Part shown: piece by piece, positions 2,044-47,570 of the stretch
Numbering within the stretch: position 1 is the stretch's first letter
Layout: the number at the start of each line of letters is the position of its first letter
Assembly (NCBI GenBank): GCA_041665505.1
Contig: JBAYIR010000001.1
Span: 19,108-83,107 of the forward strand
Length of the DNA stretch: 64,000 bases
From: Patescibacteria group bacterium
GTDB lineage: Bacteria > Patescibacteriota > Patescibacteriia > UBA1558 > GWA2-36-10
Direction: 5' to 3'
The notes under the pieces: model-generated
Databases searched by the model: none
What the model saw: the letters and a program-made list of their open reading frames with translations, nothing else
Told to the model about the DNA's origin: nothing
Translations under genes and position numbers: made by a program

Positions 2044-2106
2044 CATAAGGTTAGTCGTTATTTGTCAACCGAAGGAACTGAAACTGAAGGAAAGAGAGGA
2101 CTAGTC

Positions 2107-3633
2107 ATGTTGATAGTAGGAATCGAACCCAAAGCTCCTGGACTGCATATGTTTACGCAAGTGTACACGCCGCGGGCGGGTCTACCGAGGTTACTCCCCC
2201 GAGCTCAGGAACTCGGACATCAGTGCGTCATCTTCTGTGAAGAGTTGCGTCAATCGCAGCTCGATTGGACTCTGGTCTCCAAGGCGGATTTGATCTTGGT
2301 CTCGTCAACCACCTCGACTGCGCCACGCGCTTACCAGCTCGTGGCCAAGGCCAAAAGGCTGAATCCGCGGGCGACTATACTTGGTGGAGGACCTCATTTC
2401 ACTTTCGAGTGTCAGGAGGCGCTGGAGAGTGGTATTGATTTCGTCTTCCGTCATTGGGCAGACAGCAGTTTCTTTGAGTGGCTGGAGTGGTATCAGTCAC
2501 TTGAGGATACTCAGGTGATTAGCGGTGACGATTTGCGTCGCCTGTCAGAAATTGGCGGTTTGGCCTTCATGACGGGCAATCAAGTCCACAAGACGGCTAT
2601 GCCCAGGCAGGTTGACCCTGATTCATGGGCCACGCCTGATTTCCGCTTGGTGACTGGCTACAAGCCAAGAACTCTGACAATGATCACCAGTGAAGGATGT
2701 GATCACAAGTGTGAGTTCTGCTCGGAGTGGACCATGCACGGTGGAAAGTACCGTGTTCGTTCAGCTGAGAGAGTCTTGGCAGACCTTGTTTTTTACCGAA
2801 GAATCTATGGGAGGATTCCGATTTTCTTCGGAGATGACAACTTGGCTGCTGACCAGAAAGACAGCACTGGTCAGGTGACTGTTTCTGGTGTTGATCGTTT
2901 GACACAGCTGTGTCAGATGATCATTGATCATGGTTTGCAGGGTTCATATTCTGGTCAGGTTCGTCTGGCCTTGGCTGACCATCCGGGGGTCTTGGCTTTG
3001 ATGAGCCGAGCGGGCTTTAATCGAGCCTGTATTGGCTATGAATCGATAAACCCCGACAATGCCCAAGCTACGGGCAACAAGCTGGAGTTTGCTCGCATGG
3101 GTGAACAGACAGCTATGTTTCACAAGCATGGTATTGCTGTCCATGCGATGTGGATCATGGGTTTTGATCCTGATACTTTGGCCACCATCGCTGAAACAGT
3201 GAAGGCGGCCATCAACTGGCGGATTGAGACCAACCAATTTATGGTTTTGGTGCCAATTCCTGGTTCACCACTGAGGAAACGTCTAGAAAGAGAGGGGAGA
3301 ATCATTCATTCGGCGGGTTGGGATAAATACGACGGACACCATGTCGTATTCTACCCCAAACTGATGAAGTCTTGGGAACTCCAGGCAGCAGTGATGCTCA
3401 GAGCTATGCCCAAGGTCTACAACCTGGGACAAACCTTGGGCATTTACCTGTCTAGCAATTTCCGTACCTTGGTGAGATGGATTAACCGTCGGGCGCCTCA
3501 TCCTGGTATTGAGTTTCAGAGTCATACCATCACTCTGGTCTTGCGAGTGGTGGGACGTAACATGGTTAGGCGGGTTGGTAAACCCGCTAGAGACTACTTC
3601 GAGGAACTGAGGAGGTCGCCTACCAACAGGTAG
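2107..3633 (+). CDS. B12-binding-domain radical SAM protein (class B rSAM), compositionally foreign (~55% GC)
   Basis: N-terminal B12-binding-like region (ILVSSTTSTAPRAY...ILGGGPHFT) and a radical SAM CxxxCxxC box (SEGCDHKCEFCSE). A strong SD lies 8 nt before the ATG at 2107. The ORF track's TTG start at 2062 lacks an SD. Confidence 0.75.
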   Translation: MLIVGIEPKAPGLHMFTQVYTPRAGLPRLLPRAQELGHQCVIFCEELRQSQLDWTLVSKADLILVSSTTSTAPRAYQLVAKAKRLNPRATILGGGPHFTFECQEALESGIDFVFRHWADSSFFEWLEWYQSLEDTQVISGDDLRRLSEIGGLAFMTGNQVHKTAMPRQVDPDSWATPDFRLVTGYKPRTLTMITSEGCDHKCEFCSEWTMHGGKYRVRSAERVLADLVFYRRIYGRIPIFFGDDNLAADQKDSTGQVTVSGVDRLTQLCQMIIDHGLQGSYSGQVRLALADHPGVLALMSRAGFNRACIGYESINPDNAQATGNKLEFARMGEQTAMFHKHGIAVHAMWIMGFDPDTLATIAETVKAAINWRIETNQFMVLVPIPGSPLRKRLEREGRIIHSAGWDKYDGHHVVFYPKLMKSWELQAAVMLRAMPKVYNLGQTLGIYLSSNFRTLVRWINRRAPHPGIEFQSHTITLVLRVVGRNMVRRVGKPARDYFEELRRSPTNR

Positions 3634-5319: not shown

Positions 5320-5707
5320 TGGTGGAGATGAGGGGTATCACACCCCTGTCTGGCAAATGTCCTAATACACTTCTACAAGCTTATTCAATTTTGTGGTTTA
5401 AATTGTTGGCTCTAAAATTGACAAAAAACCAACAACCGAGCTAGTTTTTTTGTTTCAAAATACTTGTACTAACTCCAGGTATTTCTAGCCTGAAAAATAT
5501 GGCGCCTCTAGTCAAGCTCAGGCGGCTTAGCCTAGAAACGGTCGAGGCACAATTTAGGCCAAGACTGGTGCAAAGCTAGGAACTTTGAAAAGTTCTTTTA
5601 CTTTGGCAAAAGTGTTTTCTGCACTTATTTTAGTGTAATTTTTTACGAGATCACGAACTCAACTTGCTATATATCACTTCATCTGACGTCAAATAAAAAA
5701 CATCCCC
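5320..5707 (-). ncRNA. ssrA: tmRNA (SsrA)
   Basis: Minus-strand 5' end is GGGGAUG...UUUGACG. The 3' end has GGAC, a T-arm, CAUCUCC-A-CCA, and an acceptor stem with a G3:U70 wobble (Ala identity). A candidate tag ORF (AENTF...FAPVLA*) ends in TAA. The gene sits 4 nt downstream of the smpB stop. Confidence 0.65.
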
Positions 5708-5711
5708 TTAA

Positions 5712-6164
5712 TTAAAAATTTTTCAATTTTCTTAAAATGTTTCTATTGATATCCTTTCTTTTGATATCTTCTCGTTTGTCAAATTTCCTTTTTCCTTTAA
5801 CTAAAGCAATTTTTACCTTAATTAACCTTCGCGTAGTATACACTGAAACAGGCATTATTGTCAAGCCCTTCTCCTTGGTTTTACTGGATAAATATAGTAT
5901 TTCTTTTTTAGTTAAAAGTAATTTGCGGTTGGCATCTGAATCGTAGTTTTTCATACTTTGTAGAGAAGCTTTGGCATAAATAGGAATATGTACCTTTTTG
6001 ATGTAGGCTTGACCATTTTTAATAGAAATAAAAGCGCCTTTAAGACTAATATGTCTAGTTTTAATAGATTTCACTTCAGCCCCAGTCAAAACTAAACCAG
6101 CCTCAAACTCTTCTAAGTTTTGGAAATTATGATTAAGCTGTTTGTTTATGGCGATTGTAGGCAT
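5712..6164 (-). CDS. smpB: SsrA-binding protein SmpB
   Basis: IAINKQ..NY...EAG..L.G.EVKS...ISLKGA...YIKK..I is conserved SmpB sequence, and the gene is adjacent to the tmRNA. Confidence 0.85.
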   Translation of the reverse strand: MPTIAINKQLNHNFQNLEEFEAGLVLTGAEVKSIKTRHISLKGAFISIKNGQAYIKKVHIPIYAKASLQSMKNYDSDANRKLLLTKKEILYLSSKTKEKGLTIMPVSVYTTRRLIKVKIALVKGKRKFDKREDIKRKDINRNILRKLKNF

Positions 6165-6357
6165 AAGTTTTCTTTTTTCTACGGGGTAACTATATGATAT
6201 TTTAACTGCTTTGACAAGAATAAAGCTTCATAGTAATTGAATATTGTTTAATAAATCTATCTTTATAGTTTTTTGAGGGGTTTTTTGTTTGTTTTAATTT
6301 TGCTATAATATAATTATAGGGTTTTTTAATATTTATATAATAATTAATAAAAAAATT

Positions 6358-6582
6358 ATGTTTGGATTAATTTTAGTAATTTTGGGTGTCTTGGTCTTAT
6401 TTGAAAAGATGGGCATTATTCAAGGAGATTTTTGGGGATTCTTTTGGCCAATTATTTTGATTGTTTTAGGTCTTAACATGATCAAAAAAGATAGTGGTAG
6501 TATGTCTTGCTGCGGGTTTTTGAGTCATAAAAAACAAAAGAGTCATCAGGAAGATCATCATAAAGTAGTTGACGAACAATAA
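6358..6582 (+). CDS. Small membrane protein (2 TM), hypothetical
   Basis: ORF with two hydrophobic helices and a C-terminal His/charged tail. Confidence 0.4.
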   Translation: MFGLILVILGVLVLFEKMGIIQGDFWGFFWPIILIVLGLNMIKKDSGSMSCCGFLSHKKQKSHQEDHHKVVDEQ

Positions 6583-6624
6583 TTTTATCCAAGATAGATT
6601 AATCTCTGGCTGGCAATTTTTTAG

Positions 6625-7014
6625 ATGAATAGAATAATAGATAATAAAGATAGTCAGGTCTCTATAAAGCGGTCCAAGTTTTTGGGCTTTGCTTTTTATG
6701 TAGATAATGAAAAAAAAGTGTCTGAAATCTTACAAAGTTTTGAAGGTAAATATAAAGGAGCAGTCCATACAGTCTATGCTTATAGACTTAAAGAAAGCGG
6801 GGTGCTCAGAGAAAAATTTGATAATGACAAAGAGCCAGTCGGTTCAGCTGGGCAGCCTATTCTTTATTTATTGCAAAAAAAAGACATAATGAATTGTTTG
6901 ATAGTGGTAGTTCGCTACTTTGGCGGAGTTTTATTGGGGACAGGGGGGCTAGTCAGAGCTTACACTACTGCCGCCCAAGGTACTTTGGAGGATAATGTAA
7001 AAACAGATGTTTAG
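6625..7014 (+). CDS. IMPACT/YigZ (UPF0029) family protein
   Basis: KRSKFLGFAF...AVHTVYAYRL...GSAGQPIL..L......N.LIVVVRYFGGVLLGTGGLVRAY carries the YigZ N-domain motifs. Confidence 0.7.
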   Translation: MNRIIDNKDSQVSIKRSKFLGFAFYVDNEKKVSEILQSFEGKYKGAVHTVYAYRLKESGVLREKFDNDKEPVGSAGQPILYLLQKKDIMNCLIVVVRYFGGVLLGTGGLVRAYTTAAQGTLEDNVKTDV

Positions 7015-7576
7015 TAAAATAGAGAAAAAAAATATCAATATATCAGGTCAAAATTACGAATATACTCTTCGTCGTAGAGCCAGAGTAAAATATATCCGTT
7101 TAGCTATTGAGGCTGATGGTAGTATTGTTTTGACTGCACCTAGTGCTTATCCGGTATTTTTGCTTAAAAATTTTTTAGCTAGTCGTATCAACTGGATAGT
7201 CAGGGGCATTGAAAAGAGAAAATCCAATCCCAGTATTTTGGGTATCTGGCATTCGGCTACTGAGATCAAACATTATAAAAAACAAGCTAGGTTCTTGGTA
7301 GAGGAGAGGTTGAAATATTTTAATGAATATTATAATTTTAAATATAATAAGATAGCTATTCGCAATCAAAAGAGTCGTTGGGGCAGTTGTTCGTCTTCAA
7401 AAAATTTAAATTTTAATTATCGTTTAGCGATTTTACCACTAGAATTAGCTGACTATATTATTGTCCATGAGCTTTGCCATCTAAAGGAAATGAATCATTC
7501 ACGGCACTTTTGGGCTTTGGTAGAAAAGACCATTCCTGATTATAAAGTTAGGCAGAAAAAAATAAAGAAAATTTAG
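7007..7576 (+). CDS. YgjP-like metal-dependent hydrolase (DUF45/M48-like, HExxH)
   Basis: The C-terminal IIVHELCHLKEMNHSRHFW is the DUF45 zinc-motif region. Confidence 0.65.
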   Translation: MFSKIEKKNINISGQNYEYTLRRRARVKYIRLAIEADGSIVLTAPSAYPVFLLKNFLASRINWIVRGIEKRKSNPSILGIWHSATEIKHYKKQARFLVEERLKYFNEYYNFKYNKIAIRNQKSRWGSCSSSKNLNFNYRLAILPLELADYIIVHELCHLKEMNHSRHFWALVEKTIPDYKVRQKKIKKI

Positions 7577-7654
7577 CTAATGTTAGCTAATTTTTTTGAT
7601 TATTAATGATTTGAAAAAAGGCCTTGATTCTGCTAGAATTAGAAGTACAAAAGC

Positions 7655-8431
7655 ATGGAAGAAAAATATCAAAAAATCATAGCCGCAGCCAGAGCTGGTG
7701 GCCAAGTTTTAAAGCACTATTTTGGGCAAGAATTAGAAGTGACTGAAAAAACAATGCCGTCTGATTTTGTAACTATAGCTGATTTGGAAGCCGAAGCTGC
7801 AGTTTTGAAAATACTCAAAGAAAATTTTCCAGATTATAATATTATTTCGGAGGAATCAGACGATATAGCCAATGGCTCGGAATATACTTTTATTATTGAT
7901 CCAATGGATGGAACAAATAATTTTATTTTAGGTTTGGCCAATTTTTCTTGTACTATTGCTTTGATGAAAAATAAAGAAGTAATTTTTTCGGTAGTTTACA
8001 ATCCTATTATTGATAAGCTCTACTATGCTATCAAAGGTCAAGGAGCTTTTTTGAATGATAAAAAAATAAATGTAAACTCTGAAACAGATTTACGTAGAGC
8101 TAGTATTTCATTTATAGCCAAGTACAATCACGATGAAAATTTTAGATTAAAAATAATTGAAAATTTAAAAACGTCCAATATTATAAAAAGATATATGGAA
8201 AATTGGTCACCACTTTTGGATTTTTCCATGCTAGCGGCTGGTAAAATAGAAGTAGTCATCAGTTCAGATTCAGAACTGCATGATATTTTAGCTGGTAAAT
8301 TAATAGCTAAAGAAGCAGGAGCAATTATTTTGTCTTTGGACGGTAATTTAGAAACAGATGATAGAAATACTAGTTTTATTTGTGCCAACAATAAAGTTAT
8401 AGCTAATAAAATATTAGAAATTATTAAATAA
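7655..8431 (+). CDS. Inositol monophosphatase family protein (SuhB-like)
   Basis: EESD...IDPMDGTNNF and ...VVY.P... are IMPase motifs. Confidence 0.75.
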   Translation: MEEKYQKIIAAARAGGQVLKHYFGQELEVTEKTMPSDFVTIADLEAEAAVLKILKENFPDYNIISEESDDIANGSEYTFIIDPMDGTNNFILGLANFSCTIALMKNKEVIFSVVYNPIIDKLYYAIKGQGAFLNDKKINVNSETDLRRASISFIAKYNHDENFRLKIIENLKTSNIIKRYMENWSPLLDFSMLAAGKIEVVISSDSELHDILAGKLIAKEAGAIILSLDGNLETDDRNTSFICANNKVIANKILEIIK

Positions 8432-8432
8432 A

Positions 8433-8861
8433 ATGTTTTGTTTTTTTTGTGATATTCAAAAAGAAGATGAAAGAAAAGTAATAGATAGTCAATATTTTAC
8501 TTCTCGTTTTTCTGAAGTACCAGTAGCAGCTGGACATTGTGAAATATTTAGTAAAGAGCATAAAGAAGATTTGTTTCAATTATCTAGTGATGAGTGGAAT
8601 AATTTGTATGAAATAATAAAAGCAGTCAAACAAAAAATAGAAGAAAAATATCAGCCCAATGGCTATAATATTGGCTTCAATGTTGGCTTGGCCGGCGGGC
8701 AGAGTCAAAAACATATTCATCTTCATGTAATACCCCGTTATCTTGGCGATGTAGAGAATCCTCGCGGGGGAGTAAGAAATGTAATACCAGACAAAGCTGA
8801 TTATTATAAATATATTTTAGAAAAATTTCCAGAAAGAAAGAAGTATATAAAAGAAAATTAA
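8433..8861 (+). CDS. HIT-family (histidine triad) hydrolase
   Basis: QKHIHLHVIPR is the HxHxHxx motif. Confidence 0.75.
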   Translation: MFCFFCDIQKEDERKVIDSQYFTSRFSEVPVAAGHCEIFSKEHKEDLFQLSSDEWNNLYEIIKAVKQKIEEKYQPNGYNIGFNVGLAGGQSQKHIHLHVIPRYLGDVENPRGGVRNVIPDKADYYKYILEKFPERKKYIKEN

Positions 8862-8872
8862 ATAATAAACTT

Positions 8873-9415
8873 ATGGCTAGTGAAGAAAAAAAAGCTGGAG
8901 GGCTAGATAATAATCAAGAAGAAAAATACGTTCGCCCTAGTTGGGATGAATATTTTATGGAAATGGCTAGGACTGCTTCCAAACGCGCTACTTGCAGTAG
9001 AGGGCGTAGTGGTTCAATCGCTGTCAAAGATAATCAACTGCTGGTGACTGGCTATGTGGGAGCACCTAAAGGCTTTCCAGACTGTGATGAAGTAGGACAT
9101 TTGATTAAAAAAACTGATCATGGTGATGGGACTATCAGTAGCCATTGTGTCCGGACTATTCACGCTGAGCAGAACTTGATAACTCAAGCAGCCAAAAGAG
9201 GAGTTTCTTTAGATGGAGCAACTATTTATTGTCGGATGGTACCTTGCCATGTTTGTTGTATGTTGCTAGTCAATTGTGGTATCAAAAGGGTAGTAGCGGA
9301 AAGACATTATCATCAAGGTGGCGTGGATATTTTGAAACAAGCCGGCATACAACTAGATGTTTTGTATGAAGATGAAGTCCAAGCTTATGAAGGTATGACT
9401 GAGAAAAAAGAATAA
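8873..9415 (+). CDS. dCMP deaminase (ComEB/cytidine-deoxycytidylate deaminase family)
   Basis: HAEQN...PCHVCC zinc-binding motifs, and the gene lies in a thymidylate pathway context. Confidence 0.8.
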   Translation: MASEEKKAGGLDNNQEEKYVRPSWDEYFMEMARTASKRATCSRGRSGSIAVKDNQLLVTGYVGAPKGFPDCDEVGHLIKKTDHGDGTISSHCVRTIHAEQNLITQAAKRGVSLDGATIYCRMVPCHVCCMLLVNCGIKRVVAERHYHQGGVDILKQAGIQLDVLYEDEVQAYEGMTEKKE

Positions 9416-12344: not shown

Positions 12345-13022
12345 ATGGCTAAAGGAAAATTCATAGTTATAGAAGGAGGAGATGGATCGGGGAAAACTAC
12401 CCAGTTTAATCTCCTTAAAGAAAAATTACTAGCTGATGGTCATCAGCTAGAGACTGTTGATTTTCCTCAATACGGCCAGCCATCAGCAGTCTTGGTAGAA
12501 AAATATCTTAATGGTGATTTTGGTAGCGCCAAAGAAGTAGGTGCTTATCGAGCTAGTATTTTCTACGCTGTTGATAGGTATGAGGCTTCTTTTCGGATGA
12601 AAGAATGGCTAAGTGAAGGAAAAATTGTTTTGGCCAATCGCTATGCCACTTCCAATATGGTCCATCAAGCTGGCAAAATAAAAGATACTCTAGAGCGGGA
12701 TAAATTTTTAAATTGGCTAGATGAATTGGAATTTGGCATTTTTGATATTCCAAGACCAGACCTAGTATTTTTTATGAATATTTCGGCTGATATTTCCCAA
12801 AATTTAGCCCTTCAGAAAAATGCTCGGCACGATAATATTAAATCAAAAAATGATATTCATGAAAATGATTTGGGACATTTAGAAGACGCTTTAGAGGCTG
12901 GTAACTATGTGGCCAAAAAATATAACTGGGAAATAATAAATTGTGATGATGGTAGTGGACAAATGAGAAGTATTGATGATATTCACAATGAGGTTTGTAA
13001 TAAAATCAAAAAATATATATAG
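12345..13022 (+). CDS. tmk: Thymidylate kinase
   Basis: FIVIEGGDGSGKTTQ P-loop with DRY and lid motifs. Confidence 0.9.
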   Translation: MAKGKFIVIEGGDGSGKTTQFNLLKEKLLADGHQLETVDFPQYGQPSAVLVEKYLNGDFGSAKEVGAYRASIFYAVDRYEASFRMKEWLSEGKIVLANRYATSNMVHQAGKIKDTLERDKFLNWLDELEFGIFDIPRPDLVFFMNISADISQNLALQKNARHDNIKSKNDIHENDLGHLEDALEAGNYVAKKYNWEIINCDDGSGQMRSIDDIHNEVCNKIKKYI

Positions 13023-13029
13023 TTAAGCT

Positions 13030-14541
13030 ATGGCTAAATACGAAACAATTATAGGCTTAGAAATTCATTTACAACTCAAGACCAAGAGTAAGATGTTTTG
13101 CAGTTGTTCTAATGATTCAGAAGGCCAAGAACCAAATACTTTAGTTTGTCCTATTTGCTTGGGACATCCAGGGACATTGCCTAGCGTCAATAAAGAAGCT
13201 ATCAAGCTGGCTATGATGATGTCTTTGGCCTTGAATTGTAAAATAAATAAGCAATCAAAGTTTGATAGAAAAAATTATTTTTATCCAGATTTGCCCAAAG
13301 GCTATCAAATATCTCAATTTGACGAACCATTAGCTCATGACGGACATTTGGTAATTGAAGTAGATAATCAGACTTGGAGTATTGGTATAGAAAGATTACA
13401 TTTAGAAGAAGATGCCGCCAAAAATATTCATAAAGGCGATAAGACTTTGGTAGATTTTAATCGGGGTGGTACACCGCTAGCTGAGATTGTGACCAAACCA
13501 GATTTTAAAAGTCCCAAAGAGACCAAAGAATTTTTACAACAACTCAGGCTGATTGCTCGTTATCTAGATGTTTCTGAGGCGGACATGGAAAAAGGTCATT
13601 TGAGATGTGATGCCAATATATCACTAAGACCTTTAGGTGACCATGATCTTTATCCTAAAACAGAAATAAAAAACCTCAATTCATTTAAGGCTGTGGAAAA
13701 AGCTTTGATGTTTGAAGAAAAAAGACAAGCCAAACTTTGGGATGATAAGCAGGCTCCGCAAGTGACAGAGACTCGCGGCTGGGATGAAGATAAAGAGGAA
13801 ACAGTACTACAGCGCACCAAAGAAGGCTCATCTGATTATAGATATTTTCCAGAACCAGATTTGCCGCCAATTATTATTTCAGAAAAATTGATGCAAACTG
13901 TAGTTTCTACCATGGTAGAGCTACCATACAATAAAAAAGATAGATTTGTTAAAGAATATAATCTTAAAACAGAGGATGCTTGGGTTTTGGTCAATCAAAG
14001 AGTCTGGGCCAATTATTTTGAAGAAGTGATGTCTGATCTCAGGGCTTGGCTTTTTAAAGCCGAAGGCCTTTCTGAAGATAGTGATGAAGCTAGCCAACTG
14101 TGGGCAGGTAAAAAAGAAAAATTATCAAAGTTAACTTTTAATTGGATAAGTAGTGAATTGTTTGCTTTGATTGATAATAATTTTGATATTAAAAATCTTA
14201 AAATTAGCGCTGAAAATATGGCAGAGTTTATTAGTTTGATTTATAAGCAAACTATCAATAGCTCCGCTGGTCAAGTAATACTGAAAGAAATGTTTAATGG
14301 GGCCGATGATGATCCTAGCCATATTGCCGAAAGACTAAATTTGGCTCAAATTGATGATGATAGTAGTTTAGAGGATATAGCTATCGAGGTAGTGATGTCT
14401 AATCCAGAGCAAGTGGCAGAATATAAAGCTGGTAAAATTGCAGTATTAAAGTTTTTGGTGGGACAATTTATGAAAGAGAGTAAAGGCAAAGCCAATCCAC
14501 AAAAGGCAGAAGAAATTTTGAAAAAGAAATTAAAGGATTAA
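13030..14541 (+). CDS. gatB: Asp-tRNA(Asn)/Glu-tRNA(Gln) amidotransferase subunit B
   Basis: YE.IIGLEIH.QL.T.SK.FC.C...........CP.CLG.PG.LP. Confidence 0.9.
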   Translation: MAKYETIIGLEIHLQLKTKSKMFCSCSNDSEGQEPNTLVCPICLGHPGTLPSVNKEAIKLAMMMSLALNCKINKQSKFDRKNYFYPDLPKGYQISQFDEPLAHDGHLVIEVDNQTWSIGIERLHLEEDAAKNIHKGDKTLVDFNRGGTPLAEIVTKPDFKSPKETKEFLQQLRLIARYLDVSEADMEKGHLRCDANISLRPLGDHDLYPKTEIKNLNSFKAVEKALMFEEKRQAKLWDDKQAPQVTETRGWDEDKEETVLQRTKEGSSDYRYFPEPDLPPIIISEKLMQTVVSTMVELPYNKKDRFVKEYNLKTEDAWVLVNQRVWANYFEEVMSDLRAWLFKAEGLSEDSDEASQLWAGKKEKLSKLTFNWISSELFALIDNNFDIKNLKISAENMAEFISLIYKQTINSSAGQVILKEMFNGADDDPSHIAERLNLAQIDDDSSLEDIAIEVVMSNPEQVAEYKAGKIAVLKFLVGQFMKESKGKANPQKAEEILKKKLKD

Positions 14542-16166: not shown

Positions 16167-16195
16167 TTGACAAAAAATGTTGAATAGAGTATTAA
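16167..16195 (+). promoter_or_regulatory. Sigma70-like promoter TTGACA-17-TATTAA for GC-rich cassette B
   Basis: Direct motif read, followed by an AAGGAGA Shine-Dalgarno at 16233-16239. Confidence 0.45.
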
Positions 16196-16245
16196 TAAAT
16201 AGATTTGTTCCCATCACTGTTTCACCCTGGACAAGGAGACCTGAG

Positions 16246-16698
16246 TTGGAGACTGACAGCAAAAAAGCCAAGAAACCCCTGGTCGAACTCGACATATCGG
16301 TCAGGTATGGCCGCCTGACTGAAAAGCCGGCGCCGACTTATCAGGGCCAGGCGGTCGGCGAGGTTCTCAAGGACTTGCTCACCTCAGGGCCTATTTCGCG
16401 GACTTCTTCTGACATCAGTGTCAGTGTTGACTTCGGTCACAAGATGGTCCATCTGGTCCGTATGCGACTGCTTCGTTCGTCCAGCTTCGTCGGCGCATTC
16501 GGCGTCATCACGGTGGTACTTCGTCCCTTGGCCGTTGGTTTCTGCCATGGCCACGACCAGACCTTCCAGTTTTGCCCGGATGATCGTCTGATTGGCCAGC
16601 GTGGGCAGATCATCAAGCTGACGCTGGGTTACCCCGAATTCAAAAGCGAGACCTGGCACAGGGAGAAGCAGTCACAGGAAGTCAAGCAAGCTTCCTAG
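16246..16698 (+). CDS. Hypothetical protein (~150 aa) of GC-rich cassette B (~58% GC). The TTG start is inferred from the SD, and the coding strand is not fully certain.
   Basis: The ORF frame is continuous with the ORF-track ORF 16177..16698. AAGGAGA lies 6 nt upstream of a TTG. No family was recognised. A 91-aa antisense ORF (16384..16659) also exists. Confidence 0.35.
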   Translation: METDSKKAKKPLVELDISVRYGRLTEKPAPTYQGQAVGEVLKDLLTSGPISRTSSDISVSVDFGHKMVHLVRMRLLRSSSFVGAFGVITVVLRPLAVGFCHGHDQTFQFCPDDRLIGQRGQIIKLTLGYPEFKSETWHREKQSQEVKQAS

Positions 16699-21632: not shown

Positions 21633-21809
21633 AAGTTTCGGGCTTAATTATAAGTTTTTAAACATAGCTATACTACTATTGGGGATAAAAAACCCCAGAC
21701 TTATTAGGCCTCGGGACCCTTTTTCACTAAAGTCACAAAGGTTAGTTTTACCCAAGCTGTTTGAGCTTATTTCAAGCGCTTAAAGCATTAATTAGTATAG
21801 CCTTTTTGT

Positions 21810-21860
21810 AAAAAAAGTCAAAAAACTTCGCCTCCAACTTTATTCAAGCTGGAGGCGGGG
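21810..21860 (-). terminator. Rho-independent terminator for GC-rich cassette C
   Basis: cgcctcca-actttattcaagc-tggaggcg, with a T-run on the minus strand. Confidence 0.55.
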
Positions 21861-21867
21861 AGCATGG

Positions 21868-22905
21868 TCACATGCGTTTGGGCAGTTTGAGTTCTATACC
21901 GCCCTCTGGCATGCCACCACCACTGCAACAGTTGGAAGCAGGGATGATCAAGAGCTGGCCTCGATGACCTTGTCCTTTTTGTTCGAAGGGACGCGATTCA
22001 TTTACTTGCCACACCGTTGCATTTGTTGGTTTTTCGCTACGTAGCCAGCTGAGAGCTGGAAAGCCATCTCCACATTTCCAGTTAGCGAAATGTTCGGCTA
22101 TGCTGGTTTCATCAAAATAGAGTGCCGGATCTTGAATGTGCAGAGAGATATGACGCATGTGATTTGGTCTGAACTTGTCACTGCTAGTGCCTTCCCGCCA
22201 GCAGGGTTGACCACGAAAAGCTCTAGCCGGGTAGACTTTTGCGTATCCGTTGTCAGGATGGAAAACAATCACCCAGTTGGTTGACAATATCTTCGTGCCG
22301 TCATCACTGACAGCTACTGCCTGGTTGAAGTCCTTTTCAGCCTTACTGCGAGTAGCTGCAATTTTTTGATCCATGAGTTGGCACATGATATCTCGCGACT
22401 GCTGCCACTTGTTACCACTGCGGTACCAGCTACCATAAAGGCAGTAGAGCAAGCCATGGGGCCAGAAGCCTTCACTGATGCCATCATTTCTCTGATTGAA
22501 TGTCAGGAACATCCGATCGTCTTCCTTACCGCTGACAATTATCAAACAACATGCCGTTCCTACATATAGTTTGACGTCACGGAGTCGGTGCATTATAGCC
22601 AGCAGTGGTTCTAGTTTTTCAAGCCATTCCATCATACTATTAGATTCCACTTTAGGGTCAAAGGGGAACCACATTGGATCAGCACAGTCGAGTAGCAATT
22701 TTCTCATATCATGCTCTTCGACTACGTCACAGAGCAAGGTAGATCCCAGATATTTGGACCACATCTCATGATCTGGGTGAGGGGATTGCCGCTCTTGTTT
22801 AAGCCAATCAGCGATATCGCGACGGCGAAACAGGTTGTCTTCAGCAAAGCGATTGAGCACGAAATCCTTACGGATTTCAGACAGGGGTTTAGTGAAAAGA
22901 GCCAT
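21868..22905 (-). CDS. Hypothetical 345-aa protein of cassette C (~48% GC, Cys/Trp-rich); no family recognised
   Basis: An AGGAGG SD sits 8 nt upstream of ATG (MALFTKPLSEIRK...). This is shorter than the ORF-track ORF, whose first Met lacks an SD. The promoter TTGACA-N18-TGATTAAAT lies at 22965-22996. Confidence 0.6.
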   Translation of the reverse strand: MALFTKPLSEIRKDFVLNRFAEDNLFRRRDIADWLKQERQSPHPDHEMWSKYLGSTLLCDVVEEHDMRKLLLDCADPMWFPFDPKVESNSMMEWLEKLEPLLAIMHRLRDVKLYVGTACCLIIVSGKEDDRMFLTFNQRNDGISEGFWPHGLLYCLYGSWYRSGNKWQQSRDIMCQLMDQKIAATRSKAEKDFNQAVAVSDDGTKILSTNWVIVFHPDNGYAKVYPARAFRGQPCWREGTSSDKFRPNHMRHISLHIQDPALYFDETSIAEHFANWKCGDGFPALSWLRSEKPTNATVWQVNESRPFEQKGQGHRGQLLIIPASNCCSGGGMPEGGIELKLPKRM

Positions 22906-22964
22906 GGGTATCAACCTCCTAAAGTTGGTGCAGTAGTTGTCTAAACTACCGCACATACCCACAG

Positions 22965-22996
22965 TCATTTAATCAGAATATTACATTATTTGTCAA
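22965..22996 (-). promoter_or_regulatory. Sigma70-like promoter (TTGACA plus an extended -10 TGATTAAAT) for cassette C
   Basis: Direct motif read on the minus strand. Confidence 0.4.
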
Positions 22997-23033
22997 ATAA
23001 AAAACACCGAGTTGATTTCGGCGTTTTTTAAGA

Positions 23034-28186: not shown

Positions 28187-29047
28187 ATGGATGATTATAA
28201 ACCAATTAGCCAAAAGGAACTAGAAAGAGGATATTTTTTTGTTACTCATCGGCTCTTAATTAAAAAAATTATTTTTTTATTAAGTATTTTTATTTTAGTT
28301 GTTTTTTATGGATTTTTAATCTTTAGATCAATTAAATATTTTACTGGGCCTAGTTTTAGCAATTTGGCTTTAGAGATACAGCAAAATACTTTTGACTTCG
28401 CTAGCTATCATAACCAGCGTGTTCCTCAGAATATAATCTTAGGTCAGCCAGAGTTTATTTCACTTGGTGATAGGCGCTATAATATTGTAGCTTTAGTAGA
28501 GAATCCAAATAAAGATTGGGCAGTCAAAAGTATAGAGTATTATTTTGTTTCTCAAGGAGAGCCTAGTCCTAGTAAAACAACTTTTATAAATCCTGGTGAA
28601 AAAAGATTATTGACCTTGACAGCTTATGAGTCTAATAAAGCTATTAGAAGTCCCGAACTTGTGATTTCTAAGACGGAGTGGTACCGTGTAGATAATAGTT
28701 TTCCCCAGATAAATATTGATATTACTGATATTACATTTCAAGCTTCTAGTCGGGAGACTGTTGATGGAGTAGTTAGTGATTTACCGGCTAGGGTGCTATG
28801 GAGAGCTTATAATGATTCAGTCTACAATTTTTGGGAAGTAGATTGGCAAGTAGCTCTTTATAATAGTGATAAATTAGTAGCTATTAATGAACTTAAAACT
28901 AAAGATTTTTTGGCTTTGGAGAATAGAGATTTAGAAGCAGTTTGGTTGACCAAATTACCCAGAGTAACTAGAGCGGCTGTTTTTCCAATCATCAATAAGT
29001 TAGATTCAGCTATATTCAAAGATATTCACGTAACACCAAAATTTTAG
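28187..29047 (+). CDS. Membrane-anchored hypothetical protein
   Basis: 286-aa ORF with an N-terminal TM (IIFLLSIFILVVFYGFLIF). Confidence 0.45.
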   Translation: MDDYKPISQKELERGYFFVTHRLLIKKIIFLLSIFILVVFYGFLIFRSIKYFTGPSFSNLALEIQQNTFDFASYHNQRVPQNIILGQPEFISLGDRRYNIVALVENPNKDWAVKSIEYYFVSQGEPSPSKTTFINPGEKRLLTLTAYESNKAIRSPELVISKTEWYRVDNSFPQINIDITDITFQASSRETVDGVVSDLPARVLWRAYNDSVYNFWEVDWQVALYNSDKLVAINELKTKDFLALENRDLEAVWLTKLPRVTRAAVFPIINKLDSAIFKDIHVTPKF

Positions 29048-34389: not shown

Positions 34390-34464
34390 ATGTTTTTTCT
34401 AATTTGGCATCTGGGATTTAATCCGAGATCAAAAATTAATACCCCAATAAAATAGCAGATTATC

Positions 34465-34518
34465 AAAAAAAAGTCAAGAATAAAGACAATACCCCGCCGC
34501 ACTTGATGCGCGGCGGGG
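34465..34518 (-). terminator. Rho-independent terminator ending the cassette D operon
   Basis: ccccgccgc-acttgat-gcgcggcgggg, with a T-run on the minus strand. Confidence 0.55.
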
Positions 34519-34551
34519 CTGAAATTTATCGTTGACCACATTGGTGGTGGT

Positions 34552-34821
34552 CTAGTCGATCCTGAAAACTTGTGCATATTCTTCGTTCGGTAGTATGGTC
34601 AACAATTCCATAGGAATCATGGAATCTATGGCCATGCCCTTCATACGAACAGGCACTTCCAGCTTGAAGCTGGTAACGAGGTTGTCCTTGCCCAGCCGCA
34701 TCTCAACTACCTGCGGTGGACCCAGCATAGTGCCTTCAGCACCAGCCGGCCAGGCCTTGAAGCTGACAGCCAGCCGTATCGGCTGGTGCCAGAATGGTTC
34801 TGTGATGGCTCGAACTAGCAT
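34552..34821 (-). CDS. Hypothetical 89-aa protein (cassette D, third gene)
   Basis: GAAAGGAAAG SD lies 5 nt upstream of ATG. GC-rich. No family recognised. Confidence 0.5.
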   Translation of the reverse strand: MLVRAITEPFWHQPIRLAVSFKAWPAGAEGTMLGPPQVVEMRLGKDNLVTSFKLEVPVRMKGMAIDSMIPMELLTILPNEEYAQVFRID

Positions 34822-34853
34822 CTTGGCTTTCCTTTCGTTTGCAGTGGCGGGGC

Positions 34854-35111
34854 TTAGTCATCAAAATCATCGTAGTACGGATTGACGAACATCAAGGGCC
34901 CCCCGAAAGAGGGGCACAGTTCGATCCGTTCGACCTTTATTCCCTGAAGCTGTTCCCACGGTGTTTGACGGGGCCGAGCCTCCTCCTGAGCCTCGAGTTC
35001 CTTCACGCGCCTCACGATGCATTGGCCCAAGATGTTTGCGATCTGCAATCGCATTGCATTCAGCTCATCAACTTCGGTTTCGGTAACATGTTTTGCTCCT
35101 TGATCCGGCAT
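34854..35111 (-). CDS. Hypothetical 85-aa acidic protein with a C-terminal YYDDFDD (cassette D, second gene)
   Basis: GGAAGGGG SD before the ATG. The start codon lies 24 nt after the upstream gene's stop. Confidence 0.5.
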   Translation of the reverse strand: MPDQGAKHVTETEVDELNAMRLQIANILGQCIVRRVKELEAQEEARPRQTPWEQLQGIKVERIELCPSFGGPLMFVNPYYDDFDD

Positions 35112-35136
35112 GTTTCACCCCTTCCGTTTTCGGCAA

Positions 35137-35562
35137 CTAGGCCGGGTCAAACAATTCGACTAGTCCCTCGATCGTGGCTACAAGAGTTTGGAGTCCAGCT
35201 AGAGTGAACATCAGGATTGCAGCCAGGAAACAGCCAAAGGGTAGAGCTAGACCAAACCAGCTCACGCCAATTAGCAGTTCCAGGACGGAGAAGGCGTCTT
35301 TGCTCTGGTCGAGCCTGGAGATAGCGAGAAAAGTCCCACCGGCAACTGACAGAAGTGGCCACCAGGAGTAGTCCAGAGTCATCATCCATCCGGACGTGCT
35401 TATCAGCACCACGGCGATGACTTGCCGGCGTTTGAACATGGGGTGTGAGAAACTGAGTCCCGCGATCATCAGGCTCAGACCCGCCACAACACTATTGTCG
35501 TGGAACATAGCCACAAACAGCATGGCAATGCCAGCTAGGACACTCAGTAGGGCGTTTTTCAT
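35137..35562 (-). CDS. Hypothetical 4-TM membrane protein (cassette D, first gene)
   Basis: GGAAGAAAGGGAAAG SD lies before the ATG (MKNALLSVLAG...). There are four hydrophobic helices. Confidence 0.55.
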   Translation of the reverse strand: MKNALLSVLAGIAMLFVAMFHDNSVVAGLSLMIAGLSFSHPMFKRRQVIAVVLISTSGWMMTLDYSWWPLLSVAGGTFLAISRLDQSKDAFSVLELLIGVSWFGLALPFGCFLAAILMFTLAGLQTLVATIEGLVELFDPA

Positions 35563-35902
35563 GGTCTTTCCCTTTCTTCCTTGGGGGATCACTGGCTTTA
35601 GCCAGACTTTGCTAGGCGTTTTTAGCACACAAGGCTCTATCTACTATGGGCTTTGACCCAATTTACAAATGAATTGTACAGTGACTTTAACAATTAAATA
35701 TAATCTGATTATCAGCCTTTTGTCAATTACTGGCTTAAAGGGCTTGATTTATTTAAATTTTTATGTTAAAGTATTGCTGCTTAATTAATCACAAGTATTT
35801 TCATTGATTATTTGATTAACCTTCCCCAAATAAAAAAAGGGGCATTCAAATAGGAAAATACGGGTAAGCCCGCTTGTAGCGAGGCTAAAGAAAGGAAAAA
35901 AT

Positions 35903-45146: not shown

Positions 45147-45266
45147 TTATTGTTACTATGTGTTTTTTTGACAGTTTAATATGTCTAAGTGTTTTGCTCT
45201 ATGAGCAAAAGGTGACAGGCTTTATGCTTGTCTCTAAACCGTCCCTTCAACCTAGGAAAGGAGGAT

Positions 45267-46715
45267 GTGCACGTTTCGCCATATCCTAGTCCATCGGCTT
45301 CACACGCTTCACCAAAACAAACTAGGATGCTTGGTGCATCCAGAATGGAGCTGCAGATGATTACCCGTCAGGACAACCCTAGCATGTCTGCTCAGGCAGA
45401 CGTTATCGTCATTGGTGGGGGCGCCAACGGTGCTCTTATCACCTTTGAGCTCGCCAAGCGTGGCTACCAAGTCATCACCCTGGAAAAGGGTGCACTTGGT
45501 AACGGATCCAGCAGTCGTTCCGCGGCTTGTATCCGCGCTCAGTTCGGCGATCCTCGTAACGTCCTCGGCATGGTGTATGCCGAGTGGTTCTTCGAGAACT
45601 TCTACTCGATCTTGGGTGTTCCCGAAGAGGAGCAGAATGAGTGGCTGTTTGAGCAAAACGGCTACCTGTTCCTCTATGAGGATCCTGGTCAGATCGAAGA
45701 TTCTGCCAAGAGCAAGGCTTCTGCCAAGGCATGGCTCGAGGCACTGAAAGCTGCTCACATGCAACAGAAGCTTGGTTTGCCGGTTGAGATTCTCGATCCC
45801 TCTACTGTCCACGCCCGCTACCCGCACATCAACCCTGAACTTTTGATCGGCGCGACCTTCTGCCCCACCGACGGTTTCCTCAACCACGACCTCATCTACC
45901 TCAGGGGATTCGAGATGGCCCAGCGGCACTACGGTGCCCAGGTCTTCACGAACACCGAGGTGATCGGCGCTACTCGTGCCAAAGACGGCACGATCACTAC
46001 TCTGCACACCACAAGTGGTGACTTCTCGGCCAAGTGGATTGTCAACGCGACCAATGCGTGGGCGCCACGGCTGAGCAAGTTGCTGGGCGGCATGGAACTG
46101 CCCATCACACCCTTTAAGCGGTATTTGTACTGGGTACAGCCGCACTCGTCCGTGTTTTCGGACGATAGTTGGAAGAAACTACCCTTCACCATCTTCGGGA
46201 TGGGTCCGGACAGAGGATCCTACTGTCGGCCGCATCACAACGAGTTGATGTACGGTTGGGCTCACGAAGCTGAACCTGAACCGCAGTTCAGCGACGAAGA
46301 CCAGGACAGGATCGGTGCTGGTTTCCATCCCGATTCGGCAAGTGGCGACCGAGACTACTGGCTGGAGTTCCGTCTCAACGTCAACGACTTCTCGGAGTTG
46401 TTGGCCAACACTGGTCGGGCTCGGGCAACTGCCGGGTACTACGGCCAGACGCCGGATCATCAGCCAATCATCGATGTGGATACGCAAGTGTCCAACCTGA
46501 TCCATGCGGTCGGATTCTCTGGCCACGGCTTGATGATGTCTCCGGTGACTGCTCAGGTGGTCGCCGCCCTCGTCGATGGCCGGGGCGAGATCGTGAACAG
46601 GCAGATTTGTCTGCCACCGATGTTCAGGCCCGAGATGACCAAGCTCATGCTCGATTGCAGTCACTTCTCGGCCACGAGGGACTTCTACGCTCAGAAGGAA
46701 GGAGCTTACATCTAG
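45267..46715 (+). CDS. FAD-dependent oxidoreductase, DAO family (glycine/sarcosine/D-amino-acid oxidase-like); GC-rich (~58%)
   Basis: DVIVIGGGANGALITFELAKRGYQVITLEKG is a GxGxxG Rossmann motif, and the C-terminus has a GFSGHGLM motif. A GTG at 45267 lies 4 nt after AGGAGG. Alternative starts are 45228 (ORF track) and the ATG at about 45357. Confidence 0.75.
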   Translation: MHVSPYPSPSASHASPKQTRMLGASRMELQMITRQDNPSMSAQADVIVIGGGANGALITFELAKRGYQVITLEKGALGNGSSSRSAACIRAQFGDPRNVLGMVYAEWFFENFYSILGVPEEEQNEWLFEQNGYLFLYEDPGQIEDSAKSKASAKAWLEALKAAHMQQKLGLPVEILDPSTVHARYPHINPELLIGATFCPTDGFLNHDLIYLRGFEMAQRHYGAQVFTNTEVIGATRAKDGTITTLHTTSGDFSAKWIVNATNAWAPRLSKLLGGMELPITPFKRYLYWVQPHSSVFSDDSWKKLPFTIFGMGPDRGSYCRPHHNELMYGWAHEAEPEPQFSDEDQDRIGAGFHPDSASGDRDYWLEFRLNVNDFSELLANTGRARATAGYYGQTPDHQPIIDVDTQVSNLIHAVGFSGHGLMMSPVTAQVVAALVDGRGEIVNRQICLPPMFRPEMTKLMLDCSHFSATRDFYAQKEGAYI

Positions 46716-46742
46716 ACATGTGTTCATTACAGTTTCGGACCA

Positions 46743-46808
46743 GGGGGTCTACAGCACATAAGCGATTGTTTACAATCGTGTGTCTGTAGCCCCCTGAATT
46801 TTTTTATT
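46743..46808 (+). terminator. Long imperfect palindrome plus T-run, acting as a terminator
   Basis: cagggggtctacagcaca...cgattgt-tt-acaatcg...tgtgtctgtagccccctg followed by aattttttta. Confidence 0.5.
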
Positions 46809-46848
46809 CTAAATATTATACTATATTGATTATTTACGAGGCTTTGTA

Positions 46849-46877
46849 TTGACAAATTGTATTTTTTACGATAATTT
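46849..46877 (+). promoter_or_regulatory. Sigma70-like promoter (TTGACA ... GATAAT) for the small cassette E gene
   Basis: Direct motif read. An AGGAGG SD lies at 46927-46932. Confidence 0.45.
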
Positions 46878-46941
46878 TTATATTACGTTCCAAAATTGGG
46901 GCGTTTGCTAGGAAACAGTGCATTTAGCAGGAGGCAATTCA

Positions 46942-47271
46942 ATGCAGGCCGACAAAATTATCGGTGAGACCACCCGTGTGTTCCCTCGACTGCGCTGCGT
47001 GGCTATCAAGCTGGCACCGAACGACACGGTTCTCAGGGAGGGGATGACCGTTTCCTTCCATCGCGAGGCTAGCGATATGGGAGCTTTGGGCTTCCATGAC
47101 AGCACCCACAAGATCACCTCGATCGAGGTCAACCGGACGCCGGTGGCTGAGGCAACTCATCAGGATGGTATCTGTGCTGTTTGGATCGGTGGTTCGGTAG
47201 ATGATTTGCCGCCTCGTCGCTGCATCGTCTCGGTCATCAACGACCGGGCACCTGATCAGCCCACGACTTGA
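46942..47271 (+). CDS. Hypothetical 109-aa protein, partner of the FAD oxidoreductase
   Basis: AGGAGG lies 9 nt before ATG (MQADKIIGETTRV...). GC-rich. No family recognised. Confidence 0.55.
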   Translation: MQADKIIGETTRVFPRLRCVAIKLAPNDTVLREGMTVSFHREASDMGALGFHDSTHKITSIEVNRTPVAEATHQDGICAVWIGGSVDDLPPRRCIVSVINDRAPDQPTT

Positions 47272-47296
47272 CAAGTTGTTCGAGTCGTGGTAAGAT
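47268..47296 (+). promoter_or_regulatory. Putative tRNA-operon promoter TTGACA-17-TAAGAT
   Basis: Direct motif read. It overlaps the hairpin cacgact-N14-agtcgtg at the end of the preceding CDS. Confidence 0.4.
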
Positions 47297-47312
47297 AATC
47301 TTTCGATTTGGT

Positions 47313-47389
47313 GCGCCGTTAGCTCAATTGGTTAGAGCACTAGGCTTACAAGCTAGAGGTTGAGGGTTCAAGTCCCTCACGGCGTACCA
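47313..47389 (+). tRNA. tRNA-Val(TAC)
   Basis: Manual cloverleaf. Acceptor GCGCCGT/ACGGCGT (G1:U72), D-arm TAGCTCAATTGGTTAGAGC, anticodon loop CTTACAA, T-arm GAGGGTTCAAGTCCCTC, and an encoded CCA. Confidence 0.75.
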
Positions 47390-47400
47390 CACAATTTGGT

Positions 47401-47476
47401 GGGGTTATAGCTCAATTGGCAGAGCATCAGACTCAAAATCTGAATGTTAGGAGTTCAAATCTCCTTAACCCCACCA
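47401..47476 (+). tRNA. tRNA with anticodon CAA and a short (5-nt) variable arm. The overall sequence resembles tRNA-Trp(CCA) with C35 changed to A.
   Basis: Manual cloverleaf. Acceptor GGGGTTA/TAACCCC, anticodon stem TCAGA/TCTGA, loop CTCAAAA, variable arm ATGTT, T-arm AGGAGTTCAAATCTCCT, discriminator A, encoded CCA. Confidence 0.65.
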
Positions 47477-47494
47477 CTGTTCTTCTCTACAGAA

Positions 47495-47570
47495 CCCTAT
47501 ATAGCTCAACTGGACAGAGCCCCTGGATTTCTTCTCAGGAGCCGTGGAGGTTCGAATCCTCCTATAGGAG
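47495..47570 (+). tRNA. Non-canonical tRNA-like gene (Arg-TCT-like layout) with an 8-nt anticodon loop, a 6-nt variable region, a C1:A72 mismatch and no encoded CCA; possibly a pseudo- or recoding tRNA
   Basis: A canonical D-arm (TAGCTCAACTGGACAGAGC) and T-arm (GGAGGTTCGAATCCTCC) are present. The anticodon stem CCTGG/TCAGG encloses ATTTCTTC. Confidence 0.4.

Follow-up and report, generated by a model that had tools for sequence, protein, structure and literature searches.

Introduction

Autogenous translational operators, among them the E. coli thrS operator, the MS2 coat protein/replicase hairpin and T4 RegA, place one or more stem-loops at the ribosome-binding site of the regulated gene; in thrS, the underlying logic is that of a dimer reading two similar loops. 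Control by CsrA/RsmA also involves two hairpin loops, one of them overlapping the Shine-Dalgarno (SD) sequence, that are read by a dimer. Here we describe a gene that has some of these traits, with two short hairpins in its 5' leader, the SD sequence in the second and a shared purine-rich motif in the loops, in bacteria of the Candidate Phyla Radiation (CPR, Patescibacteria). It encodes a 345-residue protein on the minus strand of a 64,000-nucleotide (nt) stretch of DNA from a Patescibacteria group bacterium (GenBank assembly GCA_041665505.1, contig JBAYIR010000001.1, positions 19,108 to 83,107), hereafter called the window. Our analysis shows that the gene forms a self-contained, transferred cassette, that its product belongs to a hypervariable and uncharacterised family found only in Patescibacteria, and that a leader RNA supported by covariation sequesters its SD sequence.

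The likeness to the described regulators is partial. With respect to CsrA/RsmA, UAGGA occurs in loop 2 of 15 of the 34 leaders compared and GGA in both loops of five, but most leaders carry GAA and read UAGAA, UAAGA or CAGAA, without the GGA that defines CsrA sites. Moreover, the loop motif shifts in concert between lineages, and the element is found only before one gene family. With respect to the autogenous operators, the loops (6–9 nt) mimic no tRNA anticodon arm, the protein family and its fold are unrelated, and RNA binding is in our case something that we only infer.

The protein, in turn, recalls three other systems. Like type I restriction-modification HsdS subunits and hypervariable 'immigration control' loci, it alternates conserved and hypervariable segments (N, HV1, core, HV2 and C, where HV stands for hypervariable) and, at a fixed chromosomal site, has alleles that predate the flanking DNA by far; unlike HsdS, it has no Methylase_S or other Pfam match and no hsdM or hsdR neighbours, and its HV1 and HV2 are not repeats of each other. 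CapRel-type defence proteins combine a conserved effector and a hypervariable sensor in one fused gene product. With them the family shares a single cytoplasmic protein, a conserved core with fast-diversifying regions and horizontal mobility, but no effector domain, PADLOC match or defence-island context is detectable. Finally, the free-standing homing endonuclease genes of T4 (seg, mob) also stand alone between conserved essential genes, with a foreign composition and hairpin-limited expression, whereas the present gene is chromosomal in CPR bacteria, has no nuclease motif or fold, and varies internally.

The CPR accounts for a large share of bacterial diversity; most of its lineage-specific genes have no known function, and few of its defence or regulatory systems have been described. 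In this context, the family offers a confident predicted structure for which Foldseek detects no solved relative, a covariation-supported leader absent from Rfam whose jointly changing loops yield a direct binding hypothesis, and allelic hypervariability at a fixed locus together with a recent transfer that can be dated. Should the protein prove to read its own leader, RNA-protein specificity would here be co-evolving in a compact natural system; a defence or selfish role would make the family a new class specific to ultra-small symbiotic bacteria. Even if it is neither, a public gene call of 366 residues is corrected, and GC-rich islands are traced to other CPR bacteria and not to enterics.

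A structured leader RNA encloses the Shine-Dalgarno sequence

The coding sequence and its stop codon span positions 21868..22905 (minus strand) and specify a divergent member of the family. A purely mechanical reading of the open reading frame (ORF) covers 22968-21868 (-), or 366 residues, and the public gene call (P0001) has the same length. The 345-residue reading begins at the ATG at 22905-22903 (protein MALFTKP...), a start supported by the SD sequence nine nt before it and shared by all 72 aligned homologues, as the family alignment begins at the same methionine. Because the 21 extra codons (63 nt, 22906-22968) are filled by the conserved leader RNA, and because a -10-like hexamer overlaps the upstream ATG, the public call is an over-extension.

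The leader RNA comprises 55 nt (22906..22960, minus strand), arranged as two hairpins and an outer helix, with a folding energy of -26.1 kcal/mol (z=-4.1). Hairpin 1 (22954-22928, minus strand) reads GUGCGGUAGUU-UAGAC-AACUACUGCAC and has an 11-bp stem; hairpin 2 (22927-22912, minus strand) reads CAACU-UUAGGA-GGUUG; and the predicted outer helix, GGGUAU/AUACCC, extends to the start codon. The SD sequence AGGAGG (22915..22920, minus strand) lies nine nt 5' of the ATG, within the loop and the 3' arm of hairpin 2.

When the 60 nt preceding each family start codon were folded, the same architecture emerged almost everywhere in the family, in 29 distinct loci. The outer stem of hairpin 1 measures at least 5 bp, and where uninterrupted it can reach 11 bp, the length seen in the window; GGCCUAGAAACC and GGGGUAGAACCC are examples of the loop of this hairpin. 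Hairpin 2 comes immediately afterwards, with a 4-5-bp stem, a GUAGAA, GUAGGA or GUAAGA loop, and a 3' arm that constitutes the SD sequence, which is enclosed by this hairpin in all members; the AUG comes 5-17 nt (mostly 6-12) further on.

This structure is backed by compensatory changes. On a plain MAFFT alignment of 27 leaders, RNAalifold returned a structure of 9 pairs, all of them with compensatory changes. For an 11-pair structure, 87.5% of the cells can pair, against 63% in shuffled alignments and 32-49% when the partners are slid, and 71 cells carry double changes where 19.6 are expected. The covariation score is 0.67 versus 0.21, a value exceeded by none of 500 shuffles, and similar figures were obtained on a 38-sequence alignment built with the covariance model. 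Applied to both strands of 452 kb, that model gave 38 matches; with the exception of a single weak one, they lie directly upstream of family genes, including loci outside the seed (L003, L004, L009, L020, L029, L031, L037, L039, L043 and L048); the Komeilibacteria relatives that lack the family gene gave none. In the window, the model (R1) matched only once, at 22900-22970(-), with E=3e-7. No family of Rfam 15 corresponds to the leader, nor did permissive scans of the window leader and those of nine other loci return one. The initial annotation of this locus had passed over both the leader and the family-wide hypervariability described below.

In 24 of 34 loci, one and the same 5-mer occupies both loops, as UAGAA/UAGAA, UAAGA/UAAGA, UAGGA/UAGGA or CAGAA/CAGAA pairs, and the variants change in concert (permutation p ~5e-5, a value that ignores shared ancestry). 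The variant loop types are scattered over a star-like protein tree. Given that the loop sequence drifts from lineage to lineage and yet stays alike in the two loops, a single trans factor probably recognises both and would thereby gate translation. As only this gene family carries the element, the encoded protein is the simplest candidate reader, most likely as a dimer or as an RNA binder with two sites, which would amount to autogenous repression.

Conserved modules and hypervariable alleles

Alignment of the family resolves three conserved modules: an N-terminal module of about 50 residues (M..LFxKxxxELREAFVRxRFAE...W), a core (AExDFDxAVAVSxDGTKIVxADWVVV...F...K) and a C-terminal module (CPxPLPxGGxE). 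Two hypervariable regions, HV1 (~50-165) and HV2 (~238-325), separate them. Members are recognised by an N-terminal LFxKxxxELRExFVxxRF, a core AExDFDxAVAVSxDG, a C-terminal CPxPLPxGG and the two-hairpin leader; the protein of the window belongs to the family, with a C-terminus that departs from this motif (see below). Many of the conserved residues are basic (K6, R12, R17, R19, R39, R171, R186, K205, K234 and R252), which is compatible with, though no proof of, RNA binding.

Alleles proved 37-42% identical in genomes whose GyrB is 91-99% identical. Loci L014 and L010 share flanks of 84-98% nucleotide identity (mostly 90-96%) over ~20 kb and a GyrB that is 99% identical in amino acids, while the family protein is 38% identical; the parts of the gene that still align are the first ~100 nt (within a 216-nt blastn block of leader and start, 86%), 95 nt of the core (88%) and the last ~45 nt. 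In L017 and L034, GyrB is 94% and FtsW 81% identical, against 37% for the family protein. In L038 and L012, with flanks at 74-76% nucleotide identity, the leader and the first ~37 codons (a 230-nt block) are 92% identical and the rest cannot be aligned, for 42% amino acid identity overall. Divergence on this scale cannot be produced by point mutation in place: alleles, or segments of them, were replaced through recombination with distant alleles. The leader, the N-terminus, the core and the C-terminus stay constant during the replacement.

The GC content at third codon positions (GC3) of the family gene is above that of its neighbours in most of the loci compared (L005-L019), as in L011 (0.80 versus 0.59), and at the syntenic site of L013 the gene has a GC content of 0.59-0.60 against 0.45-0.47 in the adjacent genes. 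The elevated GC3 is consistent with frequent import or with GC-biased conversion, two processes that it does not tell apart.

Allele turnover, horizontal movement and tight translational gating together suggest a role of the conflict type. On this view, the protein would be an RNA binder whose selection is diversifying or frequency-dependent, and it would serve in genetic conflict, as a defence or a selfish function, and not in housekeeping. We propose, with a confidence that we put at about even, that the window carries a horizontally acquired cassette encoding a translationally gated, autogenously repressed RNA-binding protein engaged in such a conflict. A more ambitious form of this proposal we advance only tentatively. 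In it, the gene would be a CPR-wide, single-gene conflict module with a new fold, whose hypervariable RNA-binding protein co-evolves with two identical loops in its own leader (a self-titrating translational operator); frequency-dependent selection and horizontal transfer would maintain and reassort its alleles, and the window would then record a recent cross-lineage transfer.

Distribution of the family and database searches

An exhaustive HMMER search of 1.84 billion cluster representatives collected 182 family representatives at E<=1e-3 and 77 at E<=1e-10, all of ~300-370 residues. The protein of the window matches the family profile at E=3e-77, and its closest non-self match is 33% identical; a word-index protein search returned only the protein itself and two family members. 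All named members are annotated as "hypothetical protein". In a collection with one genome per species, 15 of 15 loci belong to metagenome-assembled genomes of Patescibacteria (Uhrbacteria, Parcubacteria and Saccharibacteria), and the metagenome matches come mostly from groundwater. Two contigs labelled Gammaproteobacteria are evidently mis-binned, as they share the Uhrbacteria gene order, and L011 also has a GyrB 74-85% identical to those of the loci with that order.

Neither domain libraries nor structures gave the family a name. Against Pfam, the sole match of the protein was DUF5619 at E=0.051 (14 bits, below the cut-off of 25), and NCBIfam gave none. Among 73 members scanned against Pfam, PHROGs, PADLOC and NCBIfam, only single matches at chance level appeared; in PADLOC-DB v2 there were no matches for the window protein and one for a single member of the 73, at E=0.006. 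The family profile found no real match among PDB sequences (best E=0.71). Two AlphaFold models of the family are confident (pLDDT 85.8 and 89.6), and Foldseek searches of both against PDB and of one against BFVD yielded nothing at E<=0.001, with TM<=0.16. Megablast against 5,426 E. coli genomes gave no match, tblastn against phages and plasmids found no homologue with either the window protein or the consensus-like P0007 as query, and scans of IMG/VR with two family alignments placed the family on no viral contig. The literature searched describes neither the protein family nor the leader RNA; the hypervariable gene reported in Gracilibacteria is an unrelated PTD-repeat surface protein (PMC6851277). 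Judged from sequence and predicted structure, then, the family, its fold (by Foldseek against PDB and BFVD) and its leader match nothing in the libraries and literature searched, and we rate them as lying outside the known kinds.

These searches bear on several statements of the initial annotation, which had seen a protein of no nameable family with an enteric-like composition and suspected a toxin or defence effector. The lack of a family stands, in Pfam, NCBIfam and PADLOC alike, and no housekeeping enzyme family native to related genomes emerged in its place. An enteric donor, on the other hand, is contradicted by the E. coli, phage and plasmid searches and by the 15 of 15 genome-derived homologues that sit on Patescibacteria-type contigs. 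The checks it had suggested, by PADLOC, in phage and plasmid databases, and by Foldseek on AlphaFold models, gave respectively no defence match for the protein, no homologue, and no structural match for the two family models at E<=0.001.

Particular identities were considered one by one. The alpha-beta-beta-beta-alpha-beta core with D...(D/E)xK of PD-(D/E)XK nucleases was not found, and LAGLIDADG, GIY-YIG, HNH or His-Cys homing endonucleases had no Pfam match in the 73 members. The DxDGT motif of the core suggested a HAD-like enzyme, an idea that we rejected as the predicted strand order is an antiparallel meander and not Rossmann-like. A type II toxin-antitoxin module does not fit a monocistronic gene with no recurrent small neighbour, and a type III module was considered and dropped. 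A diversity-generating retroelement target is contradicted by the lack of a reverse transcriptase among the genes called within +/-10 kb, by the lack of any repeat of cassette segments in the window, and by variation that spans most of the gene. An integron cassette, lastly, is at odds with the gene's own promoter-like site, with borders that show no attC-like imperfect inverted repeat and with a neighbourhood free of integrases.

Genomic context and competing explanations

In 12 of 32 loci, the genes for a ~136-residue protein, FtsW/RodA and a ~310-residue protein lie on one strand, with the family gene and then GyrB divergent from them. GyrB adjoins the family gene in nine loci; neighbours elsewhere include DnaE, UvrD, an AddA-like helicase-nuclease, PNPase, a DEAD helicase, RNase III, MnmA, Fmt, NUDIX and HepT. 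Beside the family gene, which is present once per locus except in L008, neither a partner gene nor a small neighbour recurs.

The stable synteny with FtsW and GyrB could indicate a lineage-specific accessory or regulatory RNA-binding protein of the CPR, acting for example in replication, division or translation, that evolves fast because few of its residues are constrained; the window copy would then be an ordinary passenger of horizontal transfer. A single-copy gene, confident models that imply a constrained fold, and a leader typical of autoregulated RNA-binding proteins would all suit it. Nevertheless, an identity of 38% between alleles whose flanks are mostly 90-96% identical cannot arise in place, the family is sparsely distributed, with 182 clusters in 1.84 billion representatives, close relatives of the window organism lack the gene at this position, and GC3 is raised over the host. 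We consider this explanation unlikely.

The toxin or defence reading of the initial annotation supposes a stand-alone toxin or anti-phage effector, a single-gene sensor and effector in one, that the leader silences until it is triggered. Horizontal mobility, foreign composition, independent signals, extreme allele diversity around a conserved core (as in fused sensor-effector defence proteins), a sequestered ribosome-binding site of the kind common for toxic products, and the HepT toxin gene beside one locus all speak for it. Yet PADLOC is blank across the 73 members, no effector domain or fold can be recognised, the neighbours are mostly housekeeping genes and not defence islands, and no phage or plasmid homologue exists in the collections searched, while the enteric donor has fallen. 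Such a role, neither shown nor refuted by these data, is possible, although the balance is clearly tilted against it.

Adjacency to conserved genes also raises the idea of a free-standing, homing-endonuclease-like selfish gene that settles beside gyrB, dnaE or uvrD and spreads by recombination, with hairpins limiting its expression. Homing endonuclease genes of T4 do use hairpins that sequester the ribosome-binding site. The intergenic positions beside GyrB, DnaE, UvrD and the AddA-like gene would fit, and so would transfer at the level of the cassette (with synonymous divergence far under that of the flanks; see below) and the raised GC3 in most loci. In L011, furthermore, the GyrB gene beside the family gene (5538-9005) is interrupted by an intein (Intein_splicing, residues 497-921), a further selfish element at this conserved gene. 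However, neither Pfam nor Foldseek reveals a LAGLIDADG, GIY-YIG, HNH, PD-(D/E)XK or other nuclease signature, the co-conversion tract does not extend beyond ~100 nt, the breakpoints of divergence fall inside the gene and not at its borders, and the concerted conserved loops are left unexplained. For these reasons we regard homing as very doubtful.

Our preferred proposal of a self-repressing RNA-binding protein in genetic conflict also has to face contrary observations. Autoregulation is suggested only by the concerted variation of the loops, whose permutation test ignores shared ancestry, and the fold searches pointed to neither RNA binding nor any other activity; the reader of the loops might also be a conserved global regulator or an RNA partner and not the protein. 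At 29.6 bits, the leader of the window scores lowest among the full-length matches of the covariance model, and it has unlike loops, UAGAC and UAGGA. The scans of libraries, folds and neighbourhoods brought up no effector domain, defence-island context or nuclease signature that would back a specific mechanism, and, HepT in one locus apart, no defence-island or mobile-element marker was found beside the family gene. The fixed, Uhrbacteria-type gene order of 12 of 32 loci also fits an accessory gene that is kept vertically.

Transfer of the cassette

The host is a Komeilibacteria-like CPR genome of ~35% GC, and the best named relatives of the 375-residue neighbour of the cassette are from Candidatus Komeilibacteria and other Patescibacteria. 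The closest relative, L020, in which this neighbour is 90% identical, has the cassette in the corresponding position. A profile of sliding identity and alignments of the junctions delimit the transferred segment to 21794..23033 (minus strand), 90-100% identical to L020 against ~75-88% in the flanks. Within it, the 5' half of the gene is 98% identical, and the promoter, the leader, the terminator and ~45 nt beyond are 100% identical; outside it, identity drops to ~75-80% with indels, the junctions are sharp, and the GC content steps at ~21800-21860 and ~22950.

Substitution rates (Nei-Gojobori) give the same picture. Between the window and L020, the cassette ORF has a synonymous divergence (dS) of 0.10 and a nonsynonymous divergence (dN) of 0.049, for a ratio (omega) of 0.48, whereas the 375-residue gene has dS 0.60 and omega 0.075, and dnaE has dS 0.87 and omega 0.04. 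The dS of the cassette is below that of the flanks with p=2e-15 and 3e-32, and its omega, although under 1 (p=0.012), greatly exceeds the values of the flanks (p=2e-6). The dS values and the identity profile mean that, well after the lineages of the window and of L020 had diverged, the cassette passed from one to the other or entered both from a common source. Relatives at 71-73% identity carry other cargo after the 375-residue gene, followed by thrS, which makes the site a variable slot, a local hot spot of gene turnover. In those Komeilibacteria relatives the slot holds an Acyl_transf_3 gene (L021/L022, 7340-8161) or a 103-residue hydrophobic ORF (L023/L024, 7342-7653). A thrS gene was not found anywhere in the window, and no relocation within it was seen.

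The foreign, stand-alone gene proposed by the initial annotation is supported by GC3 (0.48 versus 0.25-0.29), by dS (0.10 versus 0.60-0.87), by the other cargo in the ~72% relatives and by the gene's own signals. Its sequence has not ameliorated and the transfer looks recent; the donor was most likely another, GC-richer CPR bacterium, from which the window copy would have arrived lately unless it was exchanged between sister lineages.

An abrupt GC step may also betray an assembly chimera or contamination, an explanation that we hold to be extremely improbable. The same gene and junctions recur in a 350-kb MEGAHIT contig from ENA and in a contig of a separate Logan assembly (two samples that may overlap), which is why we discard a chimera, and a third dataset contains a related genome that shows these junctions and has diverged flanks. 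That the gene is real, and neither chance nor artefact, is confirmed by this recurrence in assemblies and in a relative, by the 182 homologous cluster representatives and by an omega below 1.

Lys234, conserved in 96% of the family, is lost both in the window (where it is Pro) and in L020, as is Ala170; A209T, D210N and R252H, at sites conserved at 74-94%, are changes of the window alone, L020 keeping the consensus. The C-terminus reads CCSGGGMPEGG. These losses, an omega of 0.48 that is ~6-12x that of the flanks, and a leader that is the most divergent of the family could be those of a decaying, non-functional remnant. But in both genomes, at a dS of 0.10, the ORF is intact and free of indels, with an omega that stays significantly under 1; the promoter, the leader and the terminator show no change between the two, and 40 of 57 family-conserved columns are kept. 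A dead remnant is accordingly quite improbable. As far as the sequence can tell, the copy shows relaxed constraint with its ORF and all its signals intact.

Signals of the cassette and neighbouring features

The gene is monocistronic and lies between its own promoter-like site and its own terminator. A -35-like TTGACA (22991..22996, minus strand) is predicted from the sequence and is identical in L020; an 18-nt spacer separates it from an extended -10-like element, also read from the sequence, TG-A-TTAAAT (22967..22975, minus strand). Both elements had been named in the initial annotation and are present, but a consensus scan made no call, since position 2 of the -10-like hexamer is T and not A; we regard the promoter as plausible and not proven. 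The intrinsic terminator (21820..21857, minus strand) consists of a 12-bp stem (21857-21829) with a 5-nt loop and a T run, and is 100% identical in L020. A bidirectional terminator-like hairpin (22998..23030, on no particular strand) directly follows the upstream 375-residue gene, is common only to the window and L020, and marks the left junction.

The GC content is 0.478 in the ORF and 0.468 over 21810-22996, against 0.34-0.39 in the flanking genes and 0.35 in the whole window. The protein contains 10 Cys, 12 Trp and CC pairs, and has no transmembrane segment (maximum Kyte-Doolittle hydropathy 1.28); the 375-residue neighbour has a single one, at its N-terminus (2.53). Nearby genes are guaB (IMPDH), DUF5667, miaB, miaA, dnaE and ftsW. 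On most of these points, namely the GC content of about 48%, the well-spaced AGGAGG at 22920-22915, the terminator with its 12-pair stem and T run, the setting between guaB (by its IMPDH match) and a membrane protein, the lack of transmembrane segments and the richness in Cys and Trp with CC pairs, our measurements agree with the initial annotation. Its figure of 55-60% GC for other cassettes in the window was somewhat too high, as the islands measure 0.50-0.56.

Four such islands, besides the cassette, stand out from the ~35% GC genome. The first (2062-3633, +) encodes a B12-binding radical-SAM protein of 523 residues; the second (16177-16698, +) is a 173-residue ORF with no family match; the third (~34400-35700) is a cluster of small ORFs, again with no family match; and the fourth (45228-47300) holds a DAO-type FAD oxidoreductase that adjoins tRNA-Val, tRNA-Leu and tRNA-Arg genes (47313-47570). 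No border repeats are shared among the five GC-rich segments, whose borders have no 13-mers in common, and the Rfam scan showed no rRNA or intron that could cause them. Their composition suggests repeated uptake of GC-richer genes.

Some observations concern individual loci. The full copy in L008 is followed 2 kb downstream by a mini-paralogue of ~205 residues (12880-13503), which retains the N-terminal motif, the core and the C-terminus and is devoid of HV1 and of the leader RNA. In L029, the family gene (293-1060) is split into adjacent segments (293-772 and 776-1060), as a pseudogene or through an assembly error. A protein of ~290-370 residues without Pfam match always adjoins FtsW/RodA; its gene is directly divergent from the family gene in the Uhrbacteria-type loci L011, L013, L014 and L017 (gene -1), and in the window (28187-29047, +) it lies four genes away. 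At gathering thresholds, the Rfam scan of the window detected only tRNAs and a tmRNA gene, an ordinary one, at 5320-5707 (-) with 115 bits.

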